64,000 nt of DNA from Bacteroidota bacterium (GTDB lineage: Bacteria; Bacteroidota; Bacteroidia; Bacteroidales; WCHB1-69), in the NCBI GenBank assembly GCA_037130365.1, contig JBAXTE010000009.1, positions 4,452-68,451 on the forward strand, written 5' to 3'. Positions 4,336-23,920 of the stretch are shown here, piece by piece. Each line of letters starts with the position of its first letter. Within the stretch, counting starts at the first letter, position 1. A program made the position numbers and the translations under genes. The notes under the pieces are model-generated. The model saw only the letters and a list, made by a program, of their open reading frames with translations. It was not told the origin of the DNA and made no database searches.

Positions 4336-4409
4336 GGCGGGATAGCTCAGTTGGTTAGAGCGTCGGATTCATAACCCGGAGGTCACGAGTTCAACTCTCG
4401 TTCCCGCTA
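4336..4409 (+). tRNA. tRNA-Met (anticodon CAU); a lysidine-modified tRNA-Ile2 cannot be excluded from sequence alone
   Basis: A cloverleaf folds by hand. The acceptor stem is GGCGGGA/TCCCGCT (G1:U72 wobble) and the D arm is GCTC-AGTTGGTTA-GAGC. The anticodon stem flanks the loop TTCATAA, the T arm is ACGAG-TTCAACT-CTCGT, and the discriminator is A. The D and T arms resemble elongator tRNA-Met. Confidence 0.9.
4358..4373 (+). repeat. 16-bp tRNA segment (D-stem 3' side to anticodon loop) that recurs at 23905-23920
   Basis: GAGCGTCGGATTCATA is an exact match to 23905-23920, and the match extends to 19 bp with one mismatch. Confidence 0.7.
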
Positions 4410-6009
4410 CAACAAGGGACTTTTCAGAAATACTCTGATTAAGTCCCTTTTCTTTTCCCTCTAAAACCCTTGTCAAATCACGGATGTAGCTAAAAAATGA
4501 GTTAATATTTTCGGTTAGATATACCCTTTTTTTCACATCTAACTTCAAACCATCAGGAAACACGATTTTTTGTATCATTCTTTTTGTTGAAATACTCCCA
4601 GACATCCAGTATTTACTAATGTTTTGAACTATCTCAAAAGAAATATTTATGTAATTTGAGAGGTTAGATATGTTGATTTTACTTTTCTCCAATTTGTCTT
4701 TAATTCCATTAATATTACCGTCTAATTCATTATTATATTTGTCAAAAAGAACTTTTGATAAGCCATCATAAACGTATTTTCGTTCCAAATCTTCTTTTTT
4801 ATTTACAAGTTCTGTGAGTTGTGTTTTTAAAAGTATTTCTTCAGTCGCACTCTCACTATTCATTGTATCAAATGTCTGTTTTAATTGCAGTTTAAACGGT
4901 TCTAAATAACGTTCTTCTAATTGGTAGGTGGCAAGTAAGTTTTTGAATAAATCATGAGCACCTTCTTTTTTTGCAAATGGAGTTGTGTTAGCGTTAATAC
5001 TAATCCCTTTGCATTTAAGGCATTTATAATAATGTACATTTTTCTTTTTGATAATATATCCTACCATTTTTGAACCGCATTCTGCGCAATATATATGTCC
5101 ATTTAGAGGTCTATCAGGATTTAGTTTTTCTTGCTTGTATATTGTTCGTTTTCCATCTAGCTTGTCATTTAAAGCTAAAAAATCCTCTTCTGAAACCATC
5201 TTTTGCCATCTGCCTTGTGCAACTTCACCACCGAGCATTTTATTGTTGCAAATCCCGCAATAAAAAGGGTTTCTCCAAAGTTTACTCAGTTTTTTTGCAT
5301 TGATTTTCAATCCCATTAGTAACAGCCTTTTTGAAATACTAACATCACTTTCGTTTTGCATTTTCCAGCCCCAAGCTTGTTGTAATAAGCACCCTATATC
5401 ATTTAAAACAATTTTTTGTTCTGGTCTTACTTTTGTGTAGTCTTTCACTCGTGGCCCATAATGGTCATATCCAAGTGGTACATTCCCAAGCCAGTTACCA
5501 TTTTCTAGGTGCTTTTTCATGCCTGGAATTGAAACCGCTAATTTGTTTAATGTTTCTTCTCTTGCCTTTAATAATTTGCCATACAAAGCCAATTTGCCTT
5601 CTTCTGTTAAAGTATTGTCACCAGAAGATACTTCAATAATATTTACGCCTATTTCATGTAGTTCAAAAGCCCATCTTACACCACCACCACCCGAACGAGA
5701 AAAGCGGCTCATTACATAAATCAATATCGCAAATGGTTTTTTCTTCATTTTTTTTATTTTCTCGATAAGGCGCATGAATTCTTTTCGTGAAATATCCCCA
5801 CTTGCACTTTCGTATGTGCCACCAAAATAGTCGGTTATGTTATAGTTGTTTGTTTTTGCATACTTTTCAGCTGCAATTTTTTGGTTTTCAAGGCTATGGT
5901 TTGTACTTTGGTCTTTCGATGAAACCCTAGTATACACCATTACACTCAAATTTTCCTCTTTTATTTCAATTGCACCTTTGGCAAATTTTTTAAATGCATC
6001 TAAGCTCAT
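4369..6009 (-). CDS. Large serine recombinase (integrase)
   Basis: 546 aa with an N-terminal resolvase-type catalytic domain and Ser nucleophile context (VMVYTRVSSKDQ). It also has a recombinase domain, a Cys-rich zinc ribbon (CAECGSKM...YYKCLKCKG) and a long helical C-terminal region. The last ~14 codons are the antisense of the tRNA-Met 3' half. Confidence 0.9.
   Translation of the reverse strand: MSLDAFKKFAKGAIEIKEENLSVMVYTRVSSKDQSTNHSLENQKIAAEKYAKTNNYNITDYFGGTYESASGDISRKEFMRLIEKIKKMKKKPFAILIYVMSRFSRSGGGGVRWAFELHEIGVNIIEVSSGDNTLTEEGKLALYGKLLKAREETLNKLAVSIPGMKKHLENGNWLGNVPLGYDHYGPRVKDYTKVRPEQKIVLNDIGCLLQQAWGWKMQNESDVSISKRLLLMGLKINAKKLSKLWRNPFYCGICNNKMLGGEVAQGRWQKMVSEEDFLALNDKLDGKRTIYKQEKLNPDRPLNGHIYCAECGSKMVGYIIKKKNVHYYKCLKCKGISINANTTPFAKKEGAHDLFKNLLATYQLEERYLEPFKLQLKQTFDTMNSESATEEILLKTQLTELVNKKEDLERKYVYDGLSKVLFDKYNNELDGNINGIKDKLEKSKINISNLSNYINISFEIVQNISKYWMSGSISTKRMIQKIVFPDGLKLDVKKRVYLTENINSFFSYIRDLTRVLEGKEKGLNQSISEKSLVVAGTRVELVTSGL
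4401..4412 (+). repeat. Left copy of the island direct repeat (attL core candidate)
   Basis: TTCCCGCTACAA is identical to 23828-23839, and the flanking bases differ on both sides. Confidence 0.75.
4414..4456 (+). terminator. Hairpin plus T-run directly after tRNA-Met, supplied by the island
   Basis: AAGGGACTT...AAGTCCCTT stem with an inner TCAG/CTGA pair, followed by TTCTTTT. It lies inside the 3' end of the antisense recombinase ORF. Confidence 0.6.
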
Positions 6010-6020
6010 TATTTTTTGTG

Positions 6021-6197
6021 TTAGTGTTTTTGTATATAAATTGAATAAGTTAGAATTGATAATTGATATAGCGTGTCGATTAATTTATTGGCTTCTTCAT
6101 CGCTTATATTTTCAAATCCTTTACACTTTTTTAGTTGTTCTATTTTTATTTTTCCATTTTCTTTTATTGGATTTTCATAATTTTCTGTAAAAGGCAT
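6021..6197 (-). CDS. Small hypothetical protein (58 aa) immediately upstream of the recombinase gene
   Basis: Hand-translated ORF below the track's length cut-off: MPFTENYENPIKENGKIKIEQLKKCKGFENISDEEANKLIDTLYQLSILTYSIYIQKH. It ends 11 nt before the recombinase start codon on the same strand. Confidence 0.3.
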   Translation of the reverse strand: MPFTENYENPIKENGKIKIEQLKKCKGFENISDEEANKLIDTLYQLSILTYSIYIQKH

Positions 6198-6290
6198 TTT
6201 CTAGTTTCCGAATATGTCTGCTCCAGATTTTTTCTATAAGCATTCGGGTTTTCATTACGCTTGAGGTCTTCAATACGATATCATTCATCT

Positions 6291-7301
6291 TTAAAATTTT
6301 ATTTTTGTGGTTCTAGTAAAGGTGACAAGTTTGCCATTTTCAGTTTTATATTTGATTTCTTGATAACCTTGCTTTAAAACATGGTCGCAGTAACGTGAAA
6401 CTATGTCTACTTTTTTGGGCGTTTCGGTAACTTCAACCAGATTTATTCTTTTGCCTTTGTAATTGATTGTTATTTGCATAATATCATCTTTTCGGATTAG
6501 CTCTAAAAGTTCTCTTTCTTCCTTTGTCAGTATTCCAAGGCTGCTAATTATTAATGCTTTTTTTTCACTTAATAAGTAGTTTTTAATAATATCTGTCAAT
6601 GATATTGTTAAATGTGGCTGTAAACATTTTTCTGCTTTGTTAGCTGTTGTAGCTTTATCATAAAACTCATTTGAATTATATGGAGCATATCTTTTATAAA
6701 GTGTATCATTGCCATCTTCTAGAAAATATGCATCACCATCTTTGAATATTACTAATTGCATATTAACTCGCATGATTATGCTTTCTTGTATTACATTGTT
6801 GAAATTATTTGTTGTTGCTTGAAAAACTAACATATTACTGATTGACTCAAGTTTGTCAATTGGAATATTTTTATTTTCCTCATATGTCAATAGGTAAGCT
6901 GTGTTAAGTGTTTTTAATGCTTGGTTCTTTAGTTCAATAGGGTATATTAATTCATCTTTTACTTTTTTGATTAGTGTCAGACTAAGTCCAAAATCTCTTA
7001 ACTCTTTTACAATTTGAATCCAGAGAAATTCCGTGAAATTTAATTTTGTCCATTTCAAATCGGCTCTTGAATATTCTAATAAAATCTCATTTTTTTTCCA
7101 ACTCATTAAATTTTTAGAACTTACCTCTGTGTTGCTAACCTTGTATATCGGGCATAACATTTTTGCTTCGAGTACCATAATGTTTTCGGGACTATCATCA
7201 CCTATACTTTTGTCATATGACTGTAATAACTTAATAAAATCAATTTCAATTTCTGTTTCAATGCCATCCTTCTCTAGAAATTTGGCCTTTAATTTTTTCA
7301 T
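6291..7301 (-). CDS. Hypothetical protein with a MerR/excisionase-like helix-turn-helix segment
   Basis: 336 aa. The segment SSKNLMSWKKNEILLEYSRADLKWTKLNFTEFLWIQIVKELRDFGLSLTLIKKVKDEL follows the MerR-type pattern (..Y.E..GLL....R....Y....DL..L..I..L...G.SL.EI). It lies upstream of the recombinase on the same strand. Confidence 0.45.
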   Translation of the reverse strand: MKKLKAKFLEKDGIETEIEIDFIKLLQSYDKSIGDDSPENIMVLEAKMLCPIYKVSNTEVSSKNLMSWKKNEILLEYSRADLKWTKLNFTEFLWIQIVKELRDFGLSLTLIKKVKDELIYPIELKNQALKTLNTAYLLTYEENKNIPIDKLESISNMLVFQATTNNFNNVIQESIIMRVNMQLVIFKDGDAYFLEDGNDTLYKRYAPYNSNEFYDKATTANKAEKCLQPHLTISLTDIIKNYLLSEKKALIISSLGILTKEERELLELIRKDDIMQITINYKGKRINLVEVTETPKKVDIVSRYCDHVLKQGYQEIKYKTENGKLVTFTRTTKIKF

Positions 7302-7522
7302 ATATAAATATTATTTTTGCGTTTTTACAAATATAAAAAAAATAAATGATAAATGCAACATTATAGTAATGTTTTATTTAATTAAATACAACCTTATGTG
7401 TGTGTTTTATAATGAAATCACTGAATCTTTATATCATTATTATTTTATATGTTTCTTCTCTTTCCGCTTTCAGTAAAATATAAATAGTCTCTTTTTTTCT
7501 TTTGCAAAGCGTTATTTTTTTA

Positions 7523-7530
7523 TATCTTTG
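7523..7530 (+). promoter_or_regulatory. Candidate -7 promoter box (TATCTTTG) for the hsd operon
   Basis: Matches TAnnTTTG and lies 27 nt upstream of the hsdR GTG start, in a divergent AT-rich intergenic region. Confidence 0.45.
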
Positions 7531-7556
7531 AACCTTCATCATATAATATTTCCAAA

Positions 7557-10010
7557 GTGGATAATAAAATCTTTTCAGAATCTGACATAAGAGCTAAATT
7601 CATCACACCAGCAATTAAAAATGCAGGGTGGGATGAGTCACAAATTCTGCGTGAAGATTACTTTACAGCTGGAAGAATCCTACATAAAGGAAAGCTACAT
7701 GCAAGAGGGAAAAAGAAAAGATACGATTATTTGCTTTGCTATAAAAGCGATATGCCACTTGCAATTGTGGAAGCTAAAGACAACAGACATACTGTGAGTT
7801 CTGGCATTCAACAGGCAATTGACTATGCAAATACACTTGATTTGCCATTTGCTTATTCTTCAAATGGTGAGGGTTTTTATGAATACGACCGTACATTGAC
7901 GAACGGCTGCTTGGAAAGAGAAATTACACTAGATGAATTTCCATCACCCGAAGAACTTTGGAACAGGTACAAAAAGTATAAAGGAATAGAAACTGCCGAA
8001 GTGGAGTCTATTGTTAAACAAGATTATTTTTTCGACCCCAAAGGTCGTGAACCCAGATATTATCAGCGTATTGCCATTAACAGAACTGTTGAAGCAGTTG
8101 CAAAAGGGGAGAACAGAATCCTACTTGTGATGGCTACTGGTACGGGGAAAACGTATACTGCATTCCAAATCATTCACCGCTTATGGAAAAGCGGAGCAAA
8201 AAGAAGAATCTTGTTTTTAGCTGATAGGACAGCATTAATTGACCAAACCCGAAGAGGTGATTTCAAGCACTTTAGAGATAAAATGACTATCATCAAAAAG
8301 AAAATGGTGACAGTCAAGGAAAATGGAATTACAAAGGAAACGTTGGTCTCTAACCACAAGCGTGGGATTGATTCGTCAGATAAAGCGTATGAAATATTTT
8401 TGGGATTATATCAAGGTTTGACTTCAATTGATGGTGTTGAAGATGCTTATAAAGATTTCTCACCCGATTTTTTCGACTTGATTATCATTGATGAGTGCCA
8501 CAGAGGAAGTGCAGATGCCGATAGTGCATGGCGTCAAATACTGACATATTTTTCAGCAGCAACTCATATAGGTTTAACAGCCACACCTAGAGAAACAAAA
8601 ACCATTTCCAATTCAGAATATTTTGGCGAACCAATTTACACTTATTCGCTAAAACAAGGGATTGAAGATGGTTTTCTAGCACCATACAAAGTAATTCGAG
8701 TCTCTCTAGATAAAGACTTGGAAGGTTACCGTCCCGAAAAAGGGAAAACCGATAAGCAAGGTCAGAATCTTGAAGATAGAGTTTATAATATCAAGGATTT
8801 TGACAGAAACATAGTGATTGATGAGCGTACAGAAATAGTTGCTAAGAAAATCACTGAGTTCCTAAAAGCGACCAATCGATTTGATAAAACAATTGTGTTT
8901 TGCATTGACATCGAACATGCAGACCGAATGCGAAACGCCCTAGTAAAAGAAAATATAGACCTAGCAACGGCAAATTCAAAGTATATCATGAAAATAACTG
9001 GAGATGACGAAGAAGGCAAACGAGAATTGGATGCGTTCATCAATCCCCAAGAAAAATATCCAGTAATTGCCACCACCTCCAAGCTGATGACCACAGGAGT
9101 CGATGCTCAAACTTGTAAATTGATTGTACTCGATTCCAACATTGCATCAATGACCGAATTCAAGCAAATTATCGGTCGGGGCACACGAATAAATGAAGAG
9201 TATGGTAAATTCTCATTTACGATTATGGACTTCCGTAATGTGACAGATTTGTTTTCCGACCCTACATTTGACGGAGACCCAGTTAAAATATACCAACCTA
9301 AACAAGACGACCCTGTTATTCCAGAGGATTTCACCGATTTTGATGAAACAGAAAATCTAACCAATCAGGAGAAAAACGAAATAATAGAAATAGATATTCC
9401 TGAAATAGGCACTGGCTCTTTAATAGAAAAGAAACCTGAAAAGCAACGAAAGATATATGTTAATGGTGTTCAAATCAGTGTGGTAAATGAGCGAGTTCAG
9501 TACTATGGTGCAGATGGAAAGCTGATAACAGAAAGCCTGAAAGATTATACGAGCAAAGCCATTAAAGAAACCTATCGTACACTTGATGATTTTTTGATTA
9601 AATGGAATTCAACCGAAAAAAAACAAGCAATTATTGATGAACTTCTTGAACAGGGAGTTTTTATTGAAGAGTTAGAAGAAAAAGTAGGAAAGGACTTAGA
9701 TTTTTTTGATTTAATATGTCATGTTGCTTTCGGAATGCCACCACTAACACGAAGAGAAAGAGCGGATAATGTCAAGAAAAGAAACTACTTCACTAAATAT
9801 GGAGAACAAGCACGAAAAGTAATAGATGCATTATTGGAGAAATATGCAGATGAAGGCATCGATAACATTGAAAATCTCGAAATACTGCAAGTTAAACCAT
9901 TAAGCGATTTTGGTTCAACAATTGAAATAGTAAATGGTATTTTTGGAAGCAGGGATAAATACCTGCAAGCGATAAAGGAATTGGAATACGAATTATATAA
10001 TATTGCATAA
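7557..10010 (+). CDS. hsdR: Type I restriction enzyme, R subunit
   Basis: 817 aa with an N-terminal PD-(D/E)xK nuclease motif (DYLLCY...AIVEAKD). SF2 helicase motifs are present: MATGTGKT (I), IIIDECHRG (II), LTATPRE (III) and QIIGRGTRI (VI). Confidence 0.95.
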   Translation: MDNKIFSESDIRAKFITPAIKNAGWDESQILREDYFTAGRILHKGKLHARGKKKRYDYLLCYKSDMPLAIVEAKDNRHTVSSGIQQAIDYANTLDLPFAYSSNGEGFYEYDRTLTNGCLEREITLDEFPSPEELWNRYKKYKGIETAEVESIVKQDYFFDPKGREPRYYQRIAINRTVEAVAKGENRILLVMATGTGKTYTAFQIIHRLWKSGAKRRILFLADRTALIDQTRRGDFKHFRDKMTIIKKKMVTVKENGITKETLVSNHKRGIDSSDKAYEIFLGLYQGLTSIDGVEDAYKDFSPDFFDLIIIDECHRGSADADSAWRQILTYFSAATHIGLTATPRETKTISNSEYFGEPIYTYSLKQGIEDGFLAPYKVIRVSLDKDLEGYRPEKGKTDKQGQNLEDRVYNIKDFDRNIVIDERTEIVAKKITEFLKATNRFDKTIVFCIDIEHADRMRNALVKENIDLATANSKYIMKITGDDEEGKRELDAFINPQEKYPVIATTSKLMTTGVDAQTCKLIVLDSNIASMTEFKQIIGRGTRINEEYGKFSFTIMDFRNVTDLFSDPTFDGDPVKIYQPKQDDPVIPEDFTDFDETENLTNQEKNEIIEIDIPEIGTGSLIEKKPEKQRKIYVNGVQISVVNERVQYYGADGKLITESLKDYTSKAIKETYRTLDDFLIKWNSTEKKQAIIDELLEQGVFIEELEEKVGKDLDFFDLICHVAFGMPPLTRRERADNVKKRNYFTKYGEQARKVIDALLEKYADEGIDNIENLEILQVKPLSDFGSTIEIVNGIFGSRDKYLQAIKELEYELYNIA

Positions 10011-10012
10011 CC

Positions 10013-10699
10013 ATGGGGGAATTAATTGAATCATTAAACAATAACGGGTCTGACCAATTTGGATTAGCATTGCTTTCATCAATCGAAGATTTGGGTTTAA
10101 GTATTTTATCTAAAACTGATTTCGAAACATTCATGTTTCATCATATCCTATTGCATCTAGATAAAACAAAAATTAAAAACAATTATGACCTAATGAGGTT
10201 GTTGAAAATCACTCCAAGCAAACTCAGAAGTTTGGAAATGAATAGGTCTGCAAAATTCCTTAATCTTGATTTGTCAAATATTGATAACTGGAGAATGATT
10301 TTTAATGCACTTGATGGCAAAAAGATAGAAACGGAGGATAAAGATAACGGCAAAGTACGAATCTATATTGAAGAATTACATGTACACCGACTAATTGAAA
10401 GATTTGTAGTTGAGGGTGGTTCATCAATAGATTACACTTTGAATAAGAATCAGTTAGTAATTAAATACACTGAGTTTTTATCATTATTAAATGCAATTTT
10501 AGTAAAAGCTAAAAAAGAACCTTTATTGACTGCTATAAATAAAGACAAAAGTCAATTTAAAGTTAAGAAAGAATTTGAGAGCTTTCAAAACATAATTTCG
10601 GATGTTAAGGAAGCAATGAAGGATGCGACATTTGAAAAAGCAGCTGAATTTGCATTAAACAAAATAATAAAAATTGCAAAAGACAAATTAGGATTATGA
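10013..10699 (+). CDS. Uncharacterised protein embedded between hsdR and hsdM
   Basis: 228-aa ORF that starts 2 nt after the hsdR stop and overlaps the hsdM start by 4 nt (ATGA). I recognise no motif in it. Confidence 0.8.
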   Translation: MGELIESLNNNGSDQFGLALLSSIEDLGLSILSKTDFETFMFHHILLHLDKTKIKNNYDLMRLLKITPSKLRSLEMNRSAKFLNLDLSNIDNWRMIFNALDGKKIETEDKDNGKVRIYIEELHVHRLIERFVVEGGSSIDYTLNKNQLVIKYTEFLSLLNAILVKAKKEPLLTAINKDKSQFKVKKEFESFQNIISDVKEAMKDATFEKAAEFALNKIIKIAKDKLGL

Positions 10700-12123
10700 G
10701 CAACATCGGAGGAGTAATAAAATCAATACGGGACATATTCAGAAAAGACCCTGGTTTGAGTGGCGATGCACAACGCATTGAGCAATTGGGATGGATGATT
10801 TTTTTAAAACTGTTTGATGATAAAGACAAGGAAAAGGAAATTCTTGATTTGAATTACAAATCCCCGATACCTGCAGAATTACAGTGGAGAAATTGGGCAG
10901 AAAACGATGAAGGAATCACAGGAGAAGAGCTTATCAATTTTGTGAATAACAAATTATTTCCCCAACTGAAGGAATTGCATATTACGGCAGACAACAGATT
11001 AGGCGTAATCATCCGTCAAATATTCGATGGAACCAACAATTATATGAAAAGTGGCACCACCTTTCGTCAGGCCATCAACAAACTCAACGAAATAGATTTC
11101 AATAGCAGCAAAGAACACCACGTGTTCAATGCAATCTATGAAGATATACTTCAAGGACTTGCCACCAAAAAAGACACAGGCGAATTTTATACACCAAGGG
11201 CAGTCACTCAATTTATCATCGACATGGTAAATCCAAAATTGAGCGAAAAAATTATTGACCCCGCATGTGGCACCGCTGGTTTTTTGGTTTGTGCCATAGA
11301 GCATTTGCGTAAGCAGGTAAACAATGTGGCAGACCGTAAAATATTGCAAGAAACCATAACAGGAACCGAATTGAAGCCGCTTCCGTTTATGTTGAGTATC
11401 ATCAACTTGATTACGCATGATATTGAAGTGCCAAAAATTGAGAATGACGATGCCTTGAGCCGTGAGTTAAGCTCCATTTCAAGAAAAGAGCAAGTGGATA
11501 TCATTGTTGCAAACCCTCCATTCGGTGGCGTGGTAGGTGATGGCATGGAAAACAACTTCCCGATGAACTTTCGCACCAAAGAGAGTGCCGACCTTTTTCT
11601 GATTTTGTTTATTCAACTGCTCAAAGATGGTGGCCGTGCTGGTATTGTATTACCCGATGGCAGCCTGACAGGTGATGGCGTAAAATCCAGAGTGAGAGAA
11701 AAACTATTGACCGATTGCAACCTGCACACCATTGTAAGGCTCCCACAGAGCGTATTTGCTCCCTATGCAACGGTAAACACCAATCTGTTGTTCTTTGCCA
11801 AAGGAACTCCCACAAAGGAGATTTGGTATTACGAACACGCATTGCCCGAAGGCTATAAAGCATACAGCAAAACGAAGCCGATTAAAATTGAGGAGTTCAA
11901 CGACATAAAAAAATGGTGGGACAACAGAACCGAAAGCGAAACCTGTTGGAAAGTCTCCATGGATACCATCAAAGAACGTGGGTTTGATTTAGACATCAAG
12001 AATCCAAATAAGGTTGTGGAAGAAGTGGAATTGAATATTATGAAAATTCTCGGAATTCTTAAATCTGAAAACAATAAAGTAAGCACAATTATCCAGGAAC
12101 TTGAAAACGATTTGGCTAAATGA
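10696..12123 (+). CDS. hsdM: Type I restriction-modification system, M subunit (N6-adenine DNA methyltransferase)
   Basis: 475 aa with a SAM-binding motif (IIDPACGTAGFL), catalytic motif IV (IVANPPFGG) and an HsdM N-terminal helical domain (QLGWMIFLKLFDD). Confidence 0.95.
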   Translation: MSNIGGVIKSIRDIFRKDPGLSGDAQRIEQLGWMIFLKLFDDKDKEKEILDLNYKSPIPAELQWRNWAENDEGITGEELINFVNNKLFPQLKELHITADNRLGVIIRQIFDGTNNYMKSGTTFRQAINKLNEIDFNSSKEHHVFNAIYEDILQGLATKKDTGEFYTPRAVTQFIIDMVNPKLSEKIIDPACGTAGFLVCAIEHLRKQVNNVADRKILQETITGTELKPLPFMLSIINLITHDIEVPKIENDDALSRELSSISRKEQVDIIVANPPFGGVVGDGMENNFPMNFRTKESADLFLILFIQLLKDGGRAGIVLPDGSLTGDGVKSRVREKLLTDCNLHTIVRLPQSVFAPYATVNTNLLFFAKGTPTKEIWYYEHALPEGYKAYSKTKPIKIEEFNDIKKWWDNRTESETCWKVSMDTIKERGFDLDIKNPNKVVEEVELNIMKILGILKSENNKVSTIIQELENDLAK

Positions 12124-13586: not shown

Positions 13587-13622
13587 CAAAATATAATAAA
13601 GGATTGTATCTTGTTTCATTAG

Positions 13623-13630
13623 TACTTTTG
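13623..13630 (+). promoter_or_regulatory. Candidate -7 promoter box (TACTTTTG) ahead of the six-gene cluster
   Basis: Matches TAnnTTTG in the 75-bp gap after hsdS, 32 nt upstream of the ATG at 13662. Confidence 0.4.
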
Positions 13631-13661
13631 TATGTAATCATTAATTCTAATTTAGCGAAAT

Positions 13662-15623: not shown

Positions 15624-15675
15624 AAAATACTTCTTGTTTCAAACCCCATTTATCAAACAAAAAAACAATAAGCAA

Positions 15676-16095: not shown

Positions 16096-16106
16096 TTGTT
16101 TTTTAT

Positions 16107-16799: not shown

Positions 16800-16896
16800 C
16801 TCATCCGAACAAAGCCAAACTAGGTGAATAACATCATAATGTATCATTATCTTTAATCATTAATTGAAATAAAGTTCATACAAATAACAACAAATA

Positions 16897-17847
16897 ATGA
16901 ATGCTGAAATTAAATATATTGACATCTTAGATAGAAAAGCTGATTATGAATTGATTTATAAAGAAACATTTAGAACAGAATTGGGTCTAAGAGCAATATC
17001 AATAATGTATGATGAACATTCCAATGATAAGAAATCACATGACAATATTTTGAGATTTAAAGACAACATTCAATACAGGCTTTTTTCAGCAACTCATCAA
17101 TATTTAGTTCTATTAAAAGAGTTATGGGGGGCAGAATCTTATTTGCAAAATCTGTATAAAAAAAATCCTCGATATATTAATTCTTTCCCATTTGAAAATC
17201 CTTTTTTTGATAAAGTAGAACAAGAATTATCATCTGTTTTTGATAATGTAATTTTTCAAGTAACTTCAATTTTTGATTATTTAAGTCATATCGTGTGTTA
17301 TATCACTTTTACAAATAAAACAAATACTCTATATTGGACTAAACTTGCAAGAGCATCAAGAGGTCAAAATAATGATTTTTCAAACATTGAATTGAAAAAT
17401 ATAATAGACATTGTGGATAGGCGTTTTGTTGGTAAGCTTTATGATTATCGCTCACGATTAATTCACGATAAAAGAGATAGACACATTTTTAATGCTCAAG
17501 CAAAATTGATTGATTTCCAATTTAATTTACAATTGCTACCTTCTGATGTCGCTCTTAAACACTTTAAGCTCATAAAAGAGGAGATACCTGTAGGTGCAGA
17601 TGTTACGCTAACATATCTAGCATCATGGTTGATTAAAAGAGCATTTTTTGAAATTGAAACTATACTGGATGTGTTGTCAATTGAATTAAAAAAAGGGTCA
17701 AACTTCCACAGTAATTTGATAAACCCAAAAAGAGGTGATGATGCATTATTGTTTATAACAATGAATCCTGAAACAAGACAAGTTGAACCATTATCAAATG
17801 GTCTATGGAAGGAATATAAAGAAAAAACCAAATCAGTGAAACAGTAG
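16897..17847 (+). CDS. Hypothetical protein with an Rx4H (HEPN-like) motif
   Basis: 316 aa, predicted mostly helical. The motif LYDYRSRLIHDKRD contains R-x4-H, the minimal HEPN RNase signature. There is no other support. Confidence 0.35.
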   Translation: MNAEIKYIDILDRKADYELIYKETFRTELGLRAISIMYDEHSNDKKSHDNILRFKDNIQYRLFSATHQYLVLLKELWGAESYLQNLYKKNPRYINSFPFENPFFDKVEQELSSVFDNVIFQVTSIFDYLSHIVCYITFTNKTNTLYWTKLARASRGQNNDFSNIELKNIIDIVDRRFVGKLYDYRSRLIHDKRDRHIFNAQAKLIDFQFNLQLLPSDVALKHFKLIKEEIPVGADVTLTYLASWLIKRAFFEIETILDVLSIELKKGSNFHSNLINPKRGDDALLFITMNPETRQVEPLSNGLWKEYKEKTKSVKQ

Positions 17848-17860
17848 CAAAATCGACTCT

Positions 17861-19606
17861 ATGAAAACAAACTCCAATAATAGCTCCATTAGCTATATGC
17901 AATTACTAGAATTTAAATTAGTCTTTCCAGATGAAATACCGTTGTCCGTTGATGAGTATCTTAAAGGTAGTAATAGGGGGGATATACTAAATGCTGCTTC
18001 TCATTTTCTAGGTTTTAACCCCAATAATTCAAAAATATTAGATAATAGGGAGTTTTTAAGTAATTTTTTTTGCGCTGAAAACAATGATTTAGCTAACTAT
18101 GTTTATGGTGTAATTAAAAATATCGAGAAAACAGGCACAAAAGTGGGGGTAATCAATCCATATTCAAGTCTATCATTGTTTGAATGTTGTTATAAAAATG
18201 AAGAAAAAGAAGAAACACAATCAAATTCTGATTTTGAAATAAATCTCTTTAAAGCATATCTTGTATTAAACTCTCAATTTACAAGTAAGCAAAAAATTGC
18301 ATTTACTTCAACCCAAGATTTACATCCATTATTGATAAATCCCATGGAATTGTTTTGTATGCAATATCCGCTTGCTGATAAAGTAAATTACGACATCAAT
18401 AGGATATGGGTAAATCAGATGTTAAAAGCAACTCATTTATTTGTATTTCTTGAATCCAATGAGAAAACAGCACCTTTACTTAAAGCTTTTCTTGAGTTTT
18501 TTAATAAAAAAAACTGGCAAGATTTTTTAAAAAGCCTACTTCCTTTAACCAATCCAATGAAATATGCAGATAATGAAGGATTTATTGATTTTGGTGTAAA
18601 TAAGAATGATGATTTTCAAGGAAGTTGCTTGTTTATTGAAAAGTTTATTGTTGATGAAAATGATAGTTTTGATGAAAATGATTTTCTTAGTATTCGGGGT
18701 AAACCTTTTTATAAAGTTGAGGATGGAGTCTATCGGGTAATTTTTCCTTTATTTGTTGTCGAAAAGATATTTAAAGGATTGTATTTTTATTTAAGTGAAG
18801 TTAATAAAACGTTAGATAAGCCATTTGGAAATATCAAAAGCTTTTATGGTGGTGAGTTTTCTGAAAATATCCTGCTTTACAATGTAATGGGAAGCATCTG
18901 GAATAATAAATGTTGTAAGTTTTCAGGCAAACAGATTTCTGAAATGAAAATTGACGGGTTTATTGATTATTATGTTAGAAAAGGGAAAAATATTTTATTG
19001 TTTGAGTCCAAAGATTTTCTTATTAAAGCAGACAAAAAAGCTTCTTTTGATTTTAATATTTATGAGAAAGAATTTAAAAAGTTACTCTACTATGAAGACA
19101 TGCCAAATGGCAAAAGGAAACCAAAAGCTGTAATTCAATTAATAAATAGTATTCGCAAAATACTTAGAAGAGAGTTTGCCGCTGATAAAGATTATAAATA
19201 TCGTGAAGTAAATATTTACCCAATTCTAATAATTCATGATTCCCAATACGATGTGCCAGGTTTTAATTTTCTTATAAATTATTGGTTTCAGCAGGAGATA
19301 GCGTCACTAAAAGAAGAAGGGGTGTATACTCATAATATTAAACCACTTGTGGTTATTAATATTGATTCACTTTTATATTATCAAGTCGCTCTTGCAGAAA
19401 ACACACCACTCCACAATATTATAAATCAGTATGAAATTCAAACGAAAGGTTCAATAAATGACAAATCGGGGTTCGATAATAAGAAATTTGATAAATATAT
19501 TCCTTTTTCATATTTCATTGATGATTTTTTCAAGAATAAAGGCATTGCAAAATTCCCTCCCTTATTGGATTTTGTAGCCCCATTGTTATTCAGTAATGAT
19601 AAATAA
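17861..19606 (+). CDS. Large hypothetical protein with a C-terminal PD-(D/E)xK-like motif
   Basis: 581 aa. KIDGFIDYYVRKGKNILLFESKDF gives D-x12/16-E-x-K preceded by a hydrophobic strand. It starts 13 nt after the previous gene. Confidence 0.45.
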   Translation: MKTNSNNSSISYMQLLEFKLVFPDEIPLSVDEYLKGSNRGDILNAASHFLGFNPNNSKILDNREFLSNFFCAENNDLANYVYGVIKNIEKTGTKVGVINPYSSLSLFECCYKNEEKEETQSNSDFEINLFKAYLVLNSQFTSKQKIAFTSTQDLHPLLINPMELFCMQYPLADKVNYDINRIWVNQMLKATHLFVFLESNEKTAPLLKAFLEFFNKKNWQDFLKSLLPLTNPMKYADNEGFIDFGVNKNDDFQGSCLFIEKFIVDENDSFDENDFLSIRGKPFYKVEDGVYRVIFPLFVVEKIFKGLYFYLSEVNKTLDKPFGNIKSFYGGEFSENILLYNVMGSIWNNKCCKFSGKQISEMKIDGFIDYYVRKGKNILLFESKDFLIKADKKASFDFNIYEKEFKKLLYYEDMPNGKRKPKAVIQLINSIRKILRREFAADKDYKYREVNIYPILIIHDSQYDVPGFNFLINYWFQQEIASLKEEGVYTHNIKPLVVINIDSLLYYQVALAENTPLHNIINQYEIQTKGSINDKSGFDNKKFDKYIPFSYFIDDFFKNKGIAKFPPLLDFVAPLLFSNDK

Positions 19607-19636
19607 GCCAATAGTCAATATTATAAAAATAATTAT

Positions 19637-20620
19637 ATGCTAAGATTTAACCGTTATCTAAGCGATGATGCTTTTAAATTCCTGAAAAATAAAGGGTCGT
19701 GGATAATCCCCGAAATAATAAATGCTAGGCCATTTAATTGCGCTTTTGCTTTTGATATTCAAATTAGGGAAAACGATTATTTGATGGTTTATGTAGGAAC
19801 CACAAGTGTTCTTAAGATTCAATTAGGTGCAGATTTTGTAAATTTCTCAGCACATAAAACTTATAAGGATAGTTTCCTGAAAAAATACTTATTTACTGAT
19901 TTGCCTTATGGTGAAATCAGTAATTACCTTGGTCGGATTCTTCCAAAAGTGGATTCAAGATATTTTGAAAATCACAAAGAAGGCTATTATCAAAATTACT
20001 TATGTTATCATTTGGGGGAAGTTGCAAGCAAAGATTCTCCATTTATTATTTTTGATAGAGAATGTGTTTTAGGTTTCGATAATAGCAATGAAAAAATAAA
20101 TCATCTGACACCATTGAAAAATAAATATGAACAAATTAGAACCGATTTACAAGAAAATAATTCAAAAAGATGGGGTATGCCAAAGTTAAAATCACTGGGA
20201 GACGAGTTGGATATGTTGGCCATTGATAATAATTGCAATCTCATTTGTATAGAATTAAAACATTCATTAAATGGTTCTGGTATTTATTGGACTCCGCTTC
20301 AAGTTTCATTATATCGAGACGCATTTGAAAGTGCTAACAATCAAGTTGTTTTTGATAGCATTAAGAAAATAATCTCTCAAAAAGCAGAATTAGGACTTTT
20401 ACCTGATTGTGTAAATAGTATCATGGATAAAAACAATTCATTCAATAAAATCATTTCACTTGTTGCAGTAGGAGGAGAGGTGAACAAAAAAATGAGTTGT
20501 TGGAGTAAATTTGAAGAAGTATGTGCTAAAAGTCCAAAAGATTTACAAAACCAAATATTTGTTTTCAATGAGAATAATTTAGGTAATTACATGTCAGTAA
20601 TTAGTGGAGTATTGGGCTAA
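19637..20620 (+). CDS. Hypothetical protein with a PD-(D/E)xK nuclease-like core (Shedu/NucS-style D...hhhhELK pattern)
   Basis: 327 aa. GDELDMLAIDNNCNLICIELKHS matches the D-x(8-13)-E-x-K pattern with a preceding beta-strand-like stretch. This is the last gene of the co-directional cluster. Confidence 0.45.
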   Translation: MLRFNRYLSDDAFKFLKNKGSWIIPEIINARPFNCAFAFDIQIRENDYLMVYVGTTSVLKIQLGADFVNFSAHKTYKDSFLKKYLFTDLPYGEISNYLGRILPKVDSRYFENHKEGYYQNYLCYHLGEVASKDSPFIIFDRECVLGFDNSNEKINHLTPLKNKYEQIRTDLQENNSKRWGMPKLKSLGDELDMLAIDNNCNLICIELKHSLNGSGIYWTPLQVSLYRDAFESANNQVVFDSIKKIISQKAELGLLPDCVNSIMDKNNSFNKIISLVAVGGEVNKKMSCWSKFEEVCAKSPKDLQNQIFVFNENNLGNYMSVISGVLG

Positions 20621-21645
20621 TACGCCATAACTTAAAACAAGCAGAAAATTCATAGGTAGAAAGTAACTAACAATAATGGAAGCACGAGTAAAATTTTAGC
20701 ATTCCCTCCCACAAACCAAAAGCAGGTAATAAATCGTCCTCTGCCTCCGAAAATCAGCACCAGCCTGCAAAATCCCCGCCCTTCACTTAAAATGAAGCGT
20801 TCAGGGCTTGCTTGGTCTTTTCCAGGCTTCCCCACAGCATCCCACAGTTGTTTTTTTCTGTCACACTTCTTGCAAAATTATCCCACATGGCACATTGCTT
20901 TCCCGAAAAAAGCAATAAGCCAACCATCCCACAAAAGCAAAAAGGCGCTACATTCCAACCACCACCACCATTCCGCTTGTGCCAGAAATAAAACAACCCA
21001 AAGCTAAATAACATAATGTGGCATTATAGTATATTCCCGATGGGCTCCACTACGTTACGGGGTTGCCACCCAATATCCTATAAAAACATTATATTAAATA
21101 GCCGCACAGGCATCCCACAGTTCCCACTCCGTTGCCACAAATCCCCACCGCCCATTTATAAGGTGTAGGGTAAGTAAAGCATAAAATTTTATGGCAAAGT
21201 GCTTAAAAGCAGGTTCATTCGCTCTCACTACGTTACGTTTCGGACACTCCGTTCATTTCGCTTTGCTACAATCACTACATTATCCTTCACTACACTTTGC
21301 ATTCGTTCATTTCTCCAGCGCAGCACCGCACAGCAAAAGTGCCTCACTCATTCCACTCCACAATCAAAACCAACAAATCTTTCACTACGCATCTACAGGC
21401 ATAATTTAAACATTTTTAAATAAACAAAATTCTATAAAGCAAATTATACCTGACAGTTGCTACGTTCAAACCTTAAATCAATTGTTTCGTTACATTCAAT
21501 CACCACCCTTGCTCATCCATCCCACATATAACAAGGTATGCTTTACTTCCCCCACTAAGTATTTGTCCCCTTTATGCTCATAATACCTCTCATAATTTAG
21601 GTACAGTTATTGTTTATTTAAGCTATTGAAATTCAATTTTAAACT
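20621..21645. other. ORF-free, C-rich (plus strand) region of about 1 kb with recurring short motifs; candidate structured ncRNA, protein-binding array or decayed foreign DNA
   Basis: No ORF exceeds 75 aa in any frame, even though the region is visibly less AT-rich than its surroundings. ATCCCACA occurs five times (20839, 20880, 20926, 21112, 21519). CACAG(G)CATCCCACAGTT occurs twice (20833, 21105). CACTACGTTACG occurs twice (21048, 21226). CGTTCATTTC occurs twice (21250, 21304). TCACTAC occurs four times. Confidence 0.6.
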
Positions 21646-22182
21646 ATGAAAAAAATCACACCAATCATTATCCTATTACTTTTTTCTTTTAAAAGTTATA
21701 GTCAAGATTTAAATAATTCAAACCTTATTAAAGAGTCTCGTAAATTATATATTGACAGTCTTTTAAGTATTTATAAAGGCAATATTAAAGACCCGATAAT
21801 TCTATATTCTAATGAACTTCCAAATAATTATACTCTTCCTCCTTCAAATATTTTAAATTTAGAGGCAAACTGGTACAGCTATTATAGTACATGTAAACAA
21901 AGAACAAAAATCAATACTAATTACAAAGTAGAAGAAATTTCAGACACAACTATTATAATTGGATTCTATTTAGTTAGGGAATATAGAAAACACTTTTTAT
22001 TTTTATTTCCGACAAAAGGCTCAATAATCAGACCTTTAAATTATTCAAAAAACAACTATAATGATTTTTGTGAAAAAAATTATTATATGCAATTCTATTA
22101 TAAATACGATTGTATAAATCATAAATGGATATTAGTTCCTGAACATTCATTTCGTAATTATCCAAAAGTTTTTGAAATTTAG
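21646..22182 (+). CDS. Secreted hypothetical protein
   Basis: 178 aa with an N-terminal signal peptide (MKKITPIIILLLFSFKSYSQ). I recognise no motif in it. Confidence 0.7.
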   Translation: MKKITPIIILLLFSFKSYSQDLNNSNLIKESRKLYIDSLLSIYKGNIKDPIILYSNELPNNYTLPPSNILNLEANWYSYYSTCKQRTKINTNYKVEEISDTTIIIGFYLVREYRKHFLFLFPTKGSIIRPLNYSKNNYNDFCEKNYYMQFYYKYDCINHKWILVPEHSFRNYPKVFEI

Positions 22183-22262
22183 AGCCTTATTATAGATAAA
22201 AAAACAAAAAGCAAGCAAAGATAGGTTGGCTTTCCCCAAGTATATCAAAACTCTCATTATAA

Positions 22263-22355
22263 GGCTATCAAGGTCGTGGCACTTCGTGTTTTGCAATATA
22301 AATCTCCAGTCAGCCAAAGGCTGATAGTATTTATATCGCAAAAACCTTGACAGCC
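22263..22355. other. Long nested imperfect hairpin in an intergenic region
   Basis: There are three coaxial stems. The outer stem is GGCTATCAAGGT (22263-22274) with ACCTTGACAGCC (22344-22355), 12 bp with 1 mismatch. The middle stem is TTGCAATATAAAT (22291-22303) with ATTTATATCGCAA (22329-22341), 13 bp with 1 mismatch. The apical stem is TCAGCC-AAA-GGCTGA (22310-22324). Confidence 0.6.
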
Positions 22356-22467
22356 TACTACGCCACCCTTTTAGATGGCTTTCTTTTTCTTTTTTTTTAG
22401 TTTTTTCATTTTTCTTTGTTAAATTTTGATGTGAGCGTAGCGAAGCTAATTTTTTAAAGCTCGCATT

Positions 22468-22890
22468 ATGGAAACGTTACAAATCAAATCGCACAAAATC
22501 GGCAGAGAATACACACAGCCACATTTTTTCATCCTTAACAAAGGAAACAATAGCGGAAAACCATTAAATCAACCATGCCCGAATTGCTTTGTCTGCATCA
22601 CAAACACTTCAAACGACAGAGAACAATTATATTGGCTTTTATATGGCTTATGGCGTTCAAACTCCTTTTATCAATACCTTAGAGGTTCTGTTATTCCTTT
22701 TATCGTGGTAAGGGACTTAAAATCGTGTATTATCAGCGCCAATTCAATTGCTGCAATAAATCAGGATGATTTTAATAAATCCGTGTCAACCCTTCGCACT
22801 CTTGAGAATCTGGAAGCTACCTACAAAAAGAACCTTCAACTAATCGACCAAGCAAAAAAAGCAGTTTTTAAAATATTTTCGCCTCATTAA
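22468..22890 (+). CDS. Hypothetical protein; weak resemblance to a solitary HsdS-type half (one TRD plus conserved helix)
   Basis: 140 aa. The C-terminal FNKSVSTLRTLENLEATYKKNLQLIDQAKKAVFKIF resembles the conserved helical spacer of S subunits. The resemblance is judged by eye only. Confidence 0.3.
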   Translation: METLQIKSHKIGREYTQPHFFILNKGNNSGKPLNQPCPNCFVCITNTSNDREQLYWLLYGLWRSNSFYQYLRGSVIPFIVVRDLKSCIISANSIAAINQDDFNKSVSTLRTLENLEATYKKNLQLIDQAKKAVFKIFSPH

Positions 22891-22958
22891 GTCCGTATCA
22901 AGTCCGTTTTTATTTTTTTATACTATTTAATAATATAACCAATTAAAAAACAAATATT

Positions 22959-23609
22959 ATGGGAAAATTAAAAAATGGAATTTTGGGAATCACAGTAGGA
23001 AAAGTGGGTAATGTGGTCGGTTCTAAATGGAAAAACATAAATACTGTACGTATTTATCAACCACAAATCTATAATCCTCGAACAGTTTCACAAACTGCTC
23101 AACGTAGCAAATTCAGCACTACAGTAGCTTTTGTAAGACAAGTATTACCACTTATAAACGAGATTTATGCTGGTAGTTTAACAAAAATGTCACCTTTCAA
23201 CAAGGTAACAAGTCTTATCGTGAAAAATGCTTTTGTTGGTGAACCTCCAGTTCTTGACCAAACATTAGTAAAACTTGGAGATATTGAAGGAAGTGAAGTT
23301 TTAAATGTAGTTAACACTGGAGTTCCTGACCAAATTATGAAAATAACTTGGGAACCTAACTCGATTATCCAAGCTGAACTTGATTCAAAATTATCCTTTG
23401 TGTTAATCAACTGTGTTACAAACAAAGCGATGATTTTCAGTGAAGTTGCTGCACGTTCTGAAGGTTCAACCCAAATCACAGCTCCCCGCAGTTGGGCTGA
23501 TTGTGATTCAGCACTTCATGTTATTACTACTGATTATAGCAATCCTGTTAAACCAAAAAAAGTAGTTAAATTCTGCCCTGGAAACGAACTTTCTGGACAC
23601 ATTAAATAG
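22959..23609 (+). CDS. Conserved-looking hypothetical protein (Bacteroidota-type, function unknown)
   Basis: 216 aa. The N-terminus MGKLKNGILGITVGKVGNVVGSKWKNINTVRIY looks like a family of uncharacterised Bacteroidota proteins that I recall only vaguely. It is followed by a strong terminator. Confidence 0.6.
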   Translation: MGKLKNGILGITVGKVGNVVGSKWKNINTVRIYQPQIYNPRTVSQTAQRSKFSTTVAFVRQVLPLINEIYAGSLTKMSPFNKVTSLIVKNAFVGEPPVLDQTLVKLGDIEGSEVLNVVNTGVPDQIMKITWEPNSIIQAELDSKLSFVLINCVTNKAMIFSEVAARSEGSTQITAPRSWADCDSALHVITTDYSNPVKPKKVVKFCPGNELSGHIK

Positions 23610-23626
23610 TTTATCTTTTTTATTTT

Positions 23627-23661
23627 AAGGCTAGTATTTTAATTAATACTAGCCTTTTTTT
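23627..23661 (+). terminator. Rho-independent terminator
   Basis: AAGGCTAGTATT / AATACTAGCCTT 12-bp stem followed by a T-run. Confidence 0.8.
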
Positions 23662-23827
23662 GTCCTAATATATACTAGTTAGAGTATTACTCTGTATTAC
23701 TTATCATATTACTAATTAACTCTTATATTAGAATAAATATTTTCTACAATATGGTCTTCTTTTAAAAACTGAGCTAAATCAATGAAAGACAAGTAATCTT
23801 CAACAAAACGGTTAGATATTGGGACAC

Positions 23828-23839
23828 TTCCCGCTACAA
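23828..23839 (+). repeat. Right copy of the island direct repeat (attR core candidate; displaced tRNA 3' end)
   Basis: TTCCCGCTACAA is identical to 4401-4412 and is followed by the terminator hairpin at 23842-23870. Confidence 0.75.
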
Positions 23840-23841
23840 AG

Positions 23842-23870
23842 AAAAAGCGACTTTATTGAGTCGCTTTTTT
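23842..23870 (+). terminator. Hairpin/T-run after the displaced tRNA 3' end (probable native tRNA-Met terminator)
   Basis: GCGACT-TTATTG-AGTCGC stem-loop flanked by an A-run and a T-run, starting 3 nt after the right direct repeat. Confidence 0.7.
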
Positions 23871-23904
23871 CGTATCGAAGTTTTTTAAATTATTGTATTC
23901 TGAG

Positions 23905-23920
23905 GAGCGTCGGATTCATA
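23905..23920 (+). repeat. Isolated copy of the tRNA-Met anticodon-arm segment, 65 bp outside the island's right repeat
   Basis: GAGCGTCGGATTCATA is an exact match to 4358-4373. The downstream sequence (TCCGTATATGC...) shows no continuation of the tRNA. Confidence 0.7.

Follow-up and report, generated by a model that had tools for sequence, protein, structure and literature searches.

The 64,000-nucleotide stretch of a Bacteroidota bacterium analyzed here (assembly GCA_037130365.1, contig JBAXTE010000009.1, positions 4,452 to 68,451; hereafter, the window) contains a tRNA-Met(CAT) gene adjoined by a large serine recombinase (LSR) gene whose reading frame runs on into the tRNA itself. This raises the question of what was inserted at the tRNA, by which enzyme, and what the insertion does to the enzyme's own gene. 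An earlier note on this DNA had proposed that an island of about 19.4 kb was put into the 3' end of tRNA-Met by the adjoining LSR. The proposal is borne out by the finding that joining the two ends of the island restores a conserved recombinase tail in frame. We hold it highly probable that the interval 4413-23839 is a 19,427-bp island integrated at tRNA-Met(CAT) by an LSR whose gene straddles the attachment site of the element (attP), with overlapping codes in the same DNA and with a reading of the site by the zinc-ribbon domain (ZD) that we infer from its geometry.

Island boundaries and the recombinase gene

The tRNA-Met(CAT) gene (4336-4410, plus strand; ARAGORN; Rfam tRNA, 66.9 bits) is intact, with its last ~4-10 nt and its terminator now coming from the island. 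The 12-mer TTCCCGCTACAA has exactly two copies in the window, as had been noted before, against a chance expectation of 0.14, and two matches were obtained in none of 100 shuffles. These direct repeats, taken from the tRNA 3' end, flank the island and leave the tRNA intact, as in tRNA-targeting islands. The coordinates of these and the other features are given in Table 1.

The recombinase open reading frame (ORF), read from 6009 to 4369, runs out of the island through the 12-bp core and then through the antisense acceptor stem and T-arm of the tRNA. Its C-terminus reads ...EKSLVVAG followed by TRVELVTSGL; codons 1-536 belong to the island, whereas the last 10 codons (TRVELVTSGL) and the stop are antisense tRNA. 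The stop codon TGA (4369-4371) is the complement of the anticodon-loop residues U33-C34-A35. When the island was circularized in silico (...23839 joined to 4413...), the frame remained open for 38 codons more, reading VVAG-SVPISNRFVEDYLSFIDLAQFLKEDHIVENIYSNIRVN before its stop, and the restored circular-form ORF encodes 584 aa. The excised form would end in ...IRVN, and the integrated form ends in ...TSGL. The right boundary at 23828-23839 is fixed independently of the repeat because the restored tail also occurs on full-length relatives, including a full-length gene on a circular-looking contig without a tRNA.

Tail reconstruction, which was possible only where the far end of an island fell inside the fetched DNA, gave the same result at other loci of the family described below. 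Joining attL and attR at the tRNA-derived repeat yields an in-frame tail with the shared motif in the window and in loci L001 (core of 11 bp, island of 9.2 kb), L079 (16 bp, 9.1 kb), L070 (12 bp, 9.1 kb), and L046 (11 bp, 2.4 kb). The tails of the window and L001 are each exactly 38 aa, within an overall range of 26-49 aa. A hidden Markov model (HMM) built from ten tails detected further orphan tails in L024, L020, L012, and L032 (E-values of 3e-15 to 6e-4), all upstream of the recombinase on the same strand. In these four loci the attL-attR identity is a GTAG-type core of 4-6 bp, in frame, which fits a serine recombinase because identity is needed only at the crossover. Rebuilt or orphan tails total nine, and three long-form genes carry the tail as well (P0018, P0078, and P0102, traced to the tRNA-less contigs L003, L091, and L092). 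Contig L092, the source of P0078, is 6,407 bp long, and its two ends overlap exactly over 55 bp, so that it would close into a tRNA-less circle of 6,352 bp; whether it is a circle or an array, it holds an intact attP inside a full-length gene.

The tails carry signatures of both protein and DNA constraint. In codons 9-25 of the ten tails, nucleotide identity is 0.51 at the first codon position, 0.61 at the second, and 0.34 at the third; in 15 of 17 columns the third position is less conserved than the second, and the invariant Asp switches between GAT and GAC codons. Such codon periodicity indicates selection on the protein. No codon position varies in the V codon (GTA) or in the I-S-N codons (ATA TCT AAC), and to judge from the alignment the constraint on the tail is one on both protein and DNA.

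A family with the same layout across Bacteroidota

In a search of a 5.8-billion-protein collection, 1,221 significant relatives were obtained among the candidates scored, 120 of them listed, and the named sources are Bacteroidota. Of the 120 homologues listed, the majority have lengths of 544-553 aa (mainly 546-551) and terminate in VAG-x-x-(L/F)-E-(P/L)-x-T-(F/S)-G-L, an end contributed by antisense tRNA. In its place, six longer proteins go on with ...(I/K)SN(R/Q/H/N)...D..., the motif of the tail reconstructed for the window. A scan of one genome per GTDB species gave 173 loci, of which 80 were fetched and analyzed together with the window (81 loci in total). The recombinase C-terminus is complete in 77 of the 81 loci, and in 69 of those 77 the stop codon lies within an antisense tRNA (66 tRNA-CAT, 2 tRNA-Leu(TAA), and 1 tRNA-Glu(TTC)), its last base always falling at tRNA position 32-35. 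The arrangement of a gene that spans attP is, from these comparisons, common to a large and apparently undescribed Bacteroidota family.

The integrated-form recombinase genes have a median dN/dS of 0.075 over 93 pairs and, by this measure, are under strong purifying selection. Recombinase genes with ~98% nucleotide identity were found in species representatives of different genera (L039, L040, L041, and L045, from a Flavobacterium metagenome-assembled genome (MAG), Ca. Arcticimaribacter, a Flavobacteriaceae MAG, and Winogradskyella poriferorum), an identity that indicates recent horizontal transfer. The family occurs in 2 of the 2.9 million contigs of IMG/VR, and both of these loci are integrated at tRNA-Met.

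Several further observations concern the targets and copies of the family. In 68 of the 69 target tRNAs the anticodon is CAT or TAA, the first two bases of which, together with U33, give an antisense in-frame stop (TGA/TAA), in a set of loci that are not phylogenetically independent; the family may be limited to tRNAs that end the fused ORF in the anticodon loop. A rare member that reads on past the anticodon loop is P0103, with 587 aa. The complete genome of Flavobacterium ginsenosidimutans FLA2 (NZ_CP158863.1) harbors two loci, L059 and L066, at 2.03 and 2.07 Mb and 46 kb apart, each terminating in tRNA-CAT. Besides the large recombinase and its small partner, contig L092 encodes a small resolvase-family protein of 206 aa as well as an HTH_3 regulator (418-1527). 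Locus L046 contains a tandem arrangement (8989-11650) in which the decayed 3' end of a second recombinase reads via the core into the tail of the 2.4-kb minimal element, which consists of little besides the recombinase gene. In L001, pieces of tRNA-Met of 24, 27, and 20 bp and a run of N lie at 1792-2075, past attR at 2372; taken together, the pieces make up nearly a whole antisense tRNA copy just outside the far end of the island and suggest tandem or successive integrations at one tRNA.

T-loop-like boxes and attachment-site geometry

The motif ATATC(T/G)AACC occurs in three direct copies at fixed distances from the V codon and in two reading frames. Box 1 is at its fixed offset in 68 of 69 genes, Box 2 has the form TAT C(T/G)A AC at -111 in all 70 genes and is read in a frame different from that of Box 1, and Box 3 is present in all 12 attP arms. 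In 53 genes the middle codon of Box 2 is CTA and in the other 17 it is CGA, a Leu/Arg change that keeps the T/G alternative of the DNA. CTA accounts for 12% of Leu codons gene-wide, and the ACC of Box 2 is found in 54 of the 70 genes versus 21% gene-wide. The expected count of GGTTAGATAT in the window is 0.14, and the three boxes and one unrelated match were observed. The fourth match (58761-58770), considered as a possible second family member, was rejected, as it lies in an unrelated leucine-rich repeat gene (58303-60012), where it encodes EISNL (BLASTP E = 1.0).

In reverse complement the box reads GGTT(A/C)GATAT, a sequence similar to the T-arm of the tRNA (GGTTCGA...). In attL, the hexamer T(C/T)GAAC of the genuine T-loop stands on the tRNA side, 16 nt from the G of the V codon, in 69 of 69 loci, and the hexamer of the attP box stands 21 nt from the same G in 12 of 12 attP arms, so that the attP box is 5 bp further from the crossover than the T-loop box of the tRNA. 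For the A118-family integrase the ZD motif was placed at positions 16-24 in attP and 11-19 in attB, and the offsets of 16 and 21 nt match this published 5-bp shift (PMC3783163). Short attachment sites of the LSR kind are likewise found in the family: the shared core is as short as GTAG, the smallest core common to all attL/attR pairs, and serine integrase sites are 40-50 bp long (PMC3783163). If A118-type ZD numbering is applied to the box offsets, the central dinucleotide would be the AG of the invariant GTAG, equal to CT, tRNA C71-U72 (4407-4408 and 23834-23835).

Replacement of the tRNA terminator

The claim that the right 12-mer is followed by a hairpin and T-run of the original tRNA was confirmed by folding (13-bp hairpin, -16.3 kcal/mol, z -4.1), as was the claim that the island supplies a replacement (-18.1 kcal/mol, z -4.7). 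The replacement terminator lies antisense inside the variable linker of the recombinase, just ahead of the S-x-V-A-G codons, and K/E-rich codons form its T-tract. In 69 of 69 loci the 60 nt past the tRNA hold a hairpin (-11.7 to -23 kcal/mol) and, after it, a T-tract; the stems differ between loci yet always pair, and none of 1,870 control windows (antisense, elsewhere in the same genes) reaches the score of the weakest terminator. A displaced-terminator hairpin with T-run is found outside attR in the window, L001, and L070. The element brings a new terminator for the tRNA that it truncates, and this need shapes a stretch of the protein. Folding was used because a promoter/terminator scanner missed both tRNA terminators, A-T pairs absorbing the T-run; sigma-70 promoter matches are uninformative for Bacteroidota. 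Judging from these features together, the last ~300 bp of the gene is at once protein code, antisense tRNA terminator, and a stretch with three T-loop-like boxes, an extreme case of overlapping codes in which the repeated, putatively DNA-binding boxes fall in two frames.

Domain architecture of the enzyme and its small partner

The adjoining recombinase had been described as serine-type with a zinc ribbon, and this assignment stands: YTRVSSKDQ is present and the Resolvase domain (PF00239) scores 3.6e-15, above the Pfam cutoff, with Zn_ribbon_recom (PF13408, 7.2e-05) and Recombinase (PF07508, 0.0016) just below their gathering cutoffs. No variation is seen at Y26, R28, S30, or Q34 among 28 and 42 aligned members, as expected of an LSR catalytic domain, and C308, C311, C330, and C333 of the zinc ribbon are invariant as well. 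In the AlphaFold2 (AF2) model (confidence score, pLDDT, 80.9; confident for the body), a catalytic domain is followed by helix alphaE (137-170), the recombinase domain, a zinc ribbon with beta strands at 306-339, a coiled coil of long helices (366-443), and a further helical domain (450-521). By sequence, the PDB yielded a match to a resolvase catalytic domain only (3guv).

A conserved 58-aa ORF lies directly upstream of the recombinase. It has tblastn matches in 51 loci, and in at least 49 of these, including L092, it is on the same strand and within 150 nt upstream of the recombinase. The 58-aa protein, which has no Pfam, NCBIfam, or PHROG match, is by its conserved position a candidate accessory or directionality factor.

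Proposed mechanism and alternative explanations

According to the proposed mechanism, the circular element would encode a 584-aa recombinase. Integration would cut the gene after codon ~536, fuse the recombinase body to antisense tRNA (10 codons and the anticodon-loop stop), and orphan the last 38 codons at attR, 19.4 kb away. The zinc-ribbon domain would read the crossover-nearest box in attP and the genuine T-loop in attB, 5 bp closer, in the manner of A118, with strand exchange at AG/CT, tRNA C71-U72. Boxes 1 and 2 could then be additional sites at which the recombinase or the 58-aa protein binds, extending attP to ~290 bp.

A number of points weigh against this interpretation. LSRs are classically held to need no accessory sites. 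The attP x attB catalysis by the enzyme of the window is a prediction from domains and attachment-site geometry. The predicted empty attB of the window island (...CTCGTTCCCGCTACAAAGAAAAAGCGAC...) had no match in an exact scan of Joint Genome Institute (JGI) metagenome contigs, the right flank alone had none in a second metagenome contig scan, and the attP junction predicted for its circle (...GATATTGGGACACTTCCCGCTACAACAAGGGACTTTTC...) was not found in scans and look-ups. Exact-protein look-ups of the flanking EamA and nitroreductase genes returned the same strain only, and the same-strain Logan contigs break off within the tRNA and within the Bro-N gene, hence are silent on occupancy. The terminal overlap of L092 is the usual signature of a circular assembly, and a tandem array could mimic it; arrays such as that of L046 give rise to full-length genes again with no excision needed. 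For I-S-N, the strongest motif of the tail, the DNA box rather than a function of the protein is at least part of the explanation, and the linker and tail have a pLDDT below 50 in the AF2 model and give no structural clue to the role of the tail.

With these points counted, the island and the gene that straddles its attP remain the favored interpretation, and two extensions of it are open to weighing. According to the first, the full-length enzyme exists only when the element is excised and the tRNA-tailed isoform when it is integrated, with the tail swap being functionally important: depending on the state of the element, the exchanged tail would tip recombination toward one direction, or shift the enzyme's activity or stability. 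We regard this proposal as nearly balanced, leaning slightly against it. The second is more far-reaching and is advanced as a tentative one that we lean against: the family would be a distinct class of serine integrases with a ~290-bp composite attP lying wholly in the enzyme's coding sequence and made up of the three T-loop-like boxes and a crossover that imitates the acceptor end of the tRNA, in which a state-sensing isoform toggle and the 58-aa partner control directionality and would replace or supplement a conventional recombination directionality factor (RDF). Serine integrases are valued for genome engineering for their short sites and their independence of accessory DNA, and their choice of direction is an active structural question, for which one enzyme body with two state-dependent tails offers a natural experiment.

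The most serious alternative, though a rather doubtful one, is that the architecture is real and neutral: the overlap with attP would be merely compact, the tail dispensable, and the isoforms alike, with tail conservation reflecting the box and a weak constraint. The coincidence of the most conserved tail residues with the DNA box, the disorder of the tail in the AF2 model, and the variation in tail length would all be expected on this view, and the genes of the integrated form, intact and under purifying selection, imply that the truncated enzyme is evidently adequate for something. Beyond the box, however, the tail shows coding periodicity and has the invariant Asp, and hydrophobic positions are conserved while their codons vary synonymously; the tails of the window and L001 agree exactly in length; and an open frame of 26-49 codons in AT-rich DNA would not persist in all members without selection.

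It is unlikely that the boxes are bound not by the recombinase but by the 58-aa protein or a host factor in an architectural or directionality role, or that they act at the RNA level. The position of the 58-aa protein is conserved to the same degree as that of the boxes, and canonical LSR sites have no accessory sites, both of which would suit such a role. Box 3, on the other hand, sits exactly at the expected ZD position of attP, with its T-loop look-alike 5 bp closer in attB, and this pattern of a 5-bp shift is specific to LSR zinc-ribbon binding.

One-way, "suicidal" integration of the SSV kind, in which only the full-length enzyme would be active and the island would be trapped unless a second intact copy helped, is quite improbable. 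Its logic is that of the suicidal tyrosine integrases (PMC8371274), integrated and long forms stand at ~114:6 among the 120 listed homologues, and scars and decayed copies exist (L001, L046). Against it, just 38 of 584 residues are lost and the catalytic and DNA-binding domains are all kept; genes are intact in 77 of the 81 loci, with the low dN/dS given above; near-identical copies across genera imply repeated mobilization; and a circular-looking form exists in L092. Finally, the notion that there is no island, the interval being ancestral, the 12-bp repeat coincidental, or the region moved by another enzyme, is effectively refuted: the missing empty site and a GC content of the interval not sharply unlike that of the flanks would fit it, but the repeat is unexpected by chance, it is very difficult to account in another way for the recovery of a conserved tail in exact frame where the junction is predicted, the same layout recurs in dozens of unrelated genomes with different cargo, and the island contains no other recombinase.

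Comparison with known systems

Phage-type LSRs (A118/LI, phiC31, Bxb1, and SPbeta SprA) share with the family the catalytic R-x-S, alphaE, the recombinase domain, the zinc ribbon, and the coiled coil, as well as a very short attP-attB identity and a ZD-type motif 5 bp further out in attP (PMC3783163). In contrast to them, the family uses a tRNA gene as attB rather than a protein-coding or intergenic site, contains attP within its own gene, so that integration changes the protein, has the extra helical domain (~450-521) and the tail after the coiled coil, possesses two more ZD-like boxes 111 and 260 bp from the crossover, and is almost absent from viral contigs.

Genes split by integration are known from tyrosine recombinase systems. 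In archaeal SSV-type suicidal integrases, described as exclusively archaeal, attP lies in the integrase ORF, the target is a tRNA, and the gene is partitioned upon integration (PMC8371274). The family resembles them in all three respects; however, SSV-type enzymes belong to the unrelated tyrosine superfamily, whereas that of the window is a serine recombinase, and their split is thought to inactivate the integrase, whereas here ~38 of 584 residues are swapped and the tRNA gives the stop. The split-by-integration logic of tyrosine systems would therewith extend to a bacterial serine recombinase. Mycobacteriophage BPs and its relatives (Clusters G, N, and P) have attP in the repressor gene's 3' end and a tRNA as attB (PMC9262239). 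There, too, integration removes C-terminal residues, a new stop arises at the junction, the isoforms depend on the state, and no separate RDF is evident; in BPs, unlike here, it is the repressor gene that is split, integration is carried out by a tyrosine recombinase, and the tail lost is an ssrA-like degron whose role has been demonstrated. The gene split in the window is the recombinase, and no repressor was identified, in contrast to integration-dependent immunity. The integrase of Riemerella RAP44-like phages (Flavobacteriales) has attP inside its gene, at nucleotides 25-43 (PMC12169736). It is of the same phylum, with attB at a tRNA 3' end and an ORF altered by integration, and differs in being a tyrosine (XerD-type) integrase of a true phage with attP at the 5' end of the gene.

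It had been remarked earlier that tRNA 3' ends are classically sites of tyrosine integrases; their use by serine recombinases is rare, but not unprecedented. A serine-family recombinase acts at tRNA-Ser in phiRSM1/3 (ORF14; PMC3816273), and that of Paracoccus phage vB_PamS_Pami6 has a predicted site at tRNA-Met (PMC6536676). In both, the core of a serine recombinase matches a tRNA 3' end. The phiRSM enzyme, unlike that of the window, is a small resolvase/invertase-like protein with attP between genes, Pami6, a siphovirus that infects an alphaproteobacterium, has a predicted site only, and a gene spanning attP has been reported for neither.

Multiple motifs near a crossover are familiar from small serine recombinases. 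In Tn3/gamma-delta res and Sin, several recombinase-binding motifs are spread across 100-300 bp beside the crossover, and site II of Sin is directly repeated. The family boxes are similarly spread, as putative binding sites only; the Tn3, gamma-delta, and Sin enzymes differ in being small serine recombinases that resolve cointegrates at intergenic sites. Each ingredient of the proposed system has a precedent; an LSR gene spanning attP, a tRNA-antisense tail, internal repeated boxes, or their combination was not found in the literature, the coverage of which is incomplete, so that a prior description is possible.

The target, the universally conserved tRNA-CAT gene, is used across the whole phylum and would provide landing sites throughout Bacteroidota, including gut Bacteroidales and Flavobacterium. 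With cargo that varies and movement between genera, the family would constitute a so far unrecognized vehicle of gene flow in Bacteroidota.

Cargo genes and flanking sequences

Table 1. Positions of the features discussed, counted from the first nucleotide of the window
Feature	Position	Strand	Evidence or remark
tRNA T-loop box GTTCAAC (antisense T(C/T)GAAC)	4389..4395	+	proposed ZD motif of attB-derived arm
attL core TTCCCGCTACAA	4401..4412	+	exact repeat
Island-borne rho-independent tRNA terminator	4414..4457 (hairpin 4414-4449 + T-tract)	+	folding
Large serine recombinase, integrated-form ORF, 546 aa	4369..6009	-	translation, Pfam, AF2 model
Box 2 GGTTAGATAT (ATATCTAACC on recombinase strand)	4513..4522	+	-111 nt from V codon; encodes Y-L-T, residues 497-499
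Box 1 GGTTAGATAT	4662..4671	+	-260 nt from V codon; encodes I-S-N, residues 447-449
Conserved 58-aa ORF directly upstream of recombinase	6021..6197	-	tblastn
336-aa ORF, no assigned function	6291..7301	-	common only to the island's closest relatives
Type I restriction-modification (R-M) cargo	7557..13586	+	Pfam; PADLOC REase_I 1146.7 bits
hsdR	7557-10010	+	type I R-M
228-aa ORF, no family match	10013-10699	+	between hsdR and hsdM, overlaps hsdM by 4 nt
hsdM	10696-12123	+	type I R-M
hsdS	12120-13586	+	type I R-M
Seven co-oriented, tightly packed cargo genes	13662..20620	+	first is a 653-aa GHKL-type ATPase, weak HATPase_c_3 match
~0.9 kb without credible ORF	20650..21560	.	no Rfam match
Last cargo genes: 178-aa ORF, DUF6943, DUF6266	21646..23656	+	own terminator at 23627-23656
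Orphan recombinase 3' end, 38 codons (SVPISNRFVEDYLSFIDLAQFLKEDHIVENIYSNIRVN) + stop	23712..23828	-	in frame only in circle; tail HMM E = 4.6e-16
Box 3 GGTTAGATAT, attP P' arm	23810..23819	+	+20 nt from V codon; encodes tail I-S-N; proposed ZD motif
attR core TTCCCGCTACAA, original tRNA 3' end	23828..23839	+	exact repeat
Displaced native tRNA terminator	23841..23870	+	folding

The cargo had been called almost entirely defense-type, which holds only in part. The type I R-M genes are clear and are the sole cargo that can be shown to be defensive; the other ~10 genes match nothing informative, and PADLOC, NCBIfam, and PHROGs found nothing in the cargo beyond type I R-M. The seven genes that follow hsdS, which have no PADLOC, NCBIfam, or PHROG match, may be an undescribed defense system or something else. 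Cargo genes are not shared between the islands of the family. Conjugation and phage structural genes, already reported as missing, were indeed not found among the island genes with Pfam, PHROGs, NCBIfam, and PADLOC, and the same four resources detected no tyrosine integrase in the island. No PHROG or Pfam phage match of the kind expected from a prophage or phage satellite was obtained among the island genes scanned, and relaxase, coupling protein, and type IV secretion, the marks of an integrative and conjugative or mobilizable element, had no Pfam or NCBIfam match. A novel Mob protein, or a strategy relying on an origin of transfer (oriT) only, may be present among the island ORFs without a family match.

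The ~0.9-kb segment without a credible ORF has a higher GC content (~0.39) and a strongly negative GC skew, being C-rich on the plus strand. Within it a CATCCCACA-type motif occurs at least six times, alongside a 28-nt imperfect inverted repeat (21165-21192 / 21528-21555), and the segment could be an origin, an oriT, iterons, or a noncoding RNA.

The right-hand coordinate given earlier was 23920. It derives from a separate tRNA fragment outside the attachment site, a 16-bp copy of the tRNA-Met anticodon arm at 23905-23920 (GAGCGTCGGATTCATA, identical to 4358-4373). The fragment was rejected as a part of attR by its position 65 bp past attR, beyond the native terminator and outside the island. 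The bases upstream of it are weakly D-arm-like, and its local fold fails to reach significance (z -1.6). Probably the fragment is a second copy of the tRNA that has decayed, or a scar left by an older event, comparable to the extra tRNA pieces beyond attR of L001. A gene with a Bro-N domain (24107-24943) lies directly outside attR. The independent same-strain Logan assembly breaks within it, which suggests multi-copy or mobile sequence, and the flank of the island at this gene may be the remnant of another element.

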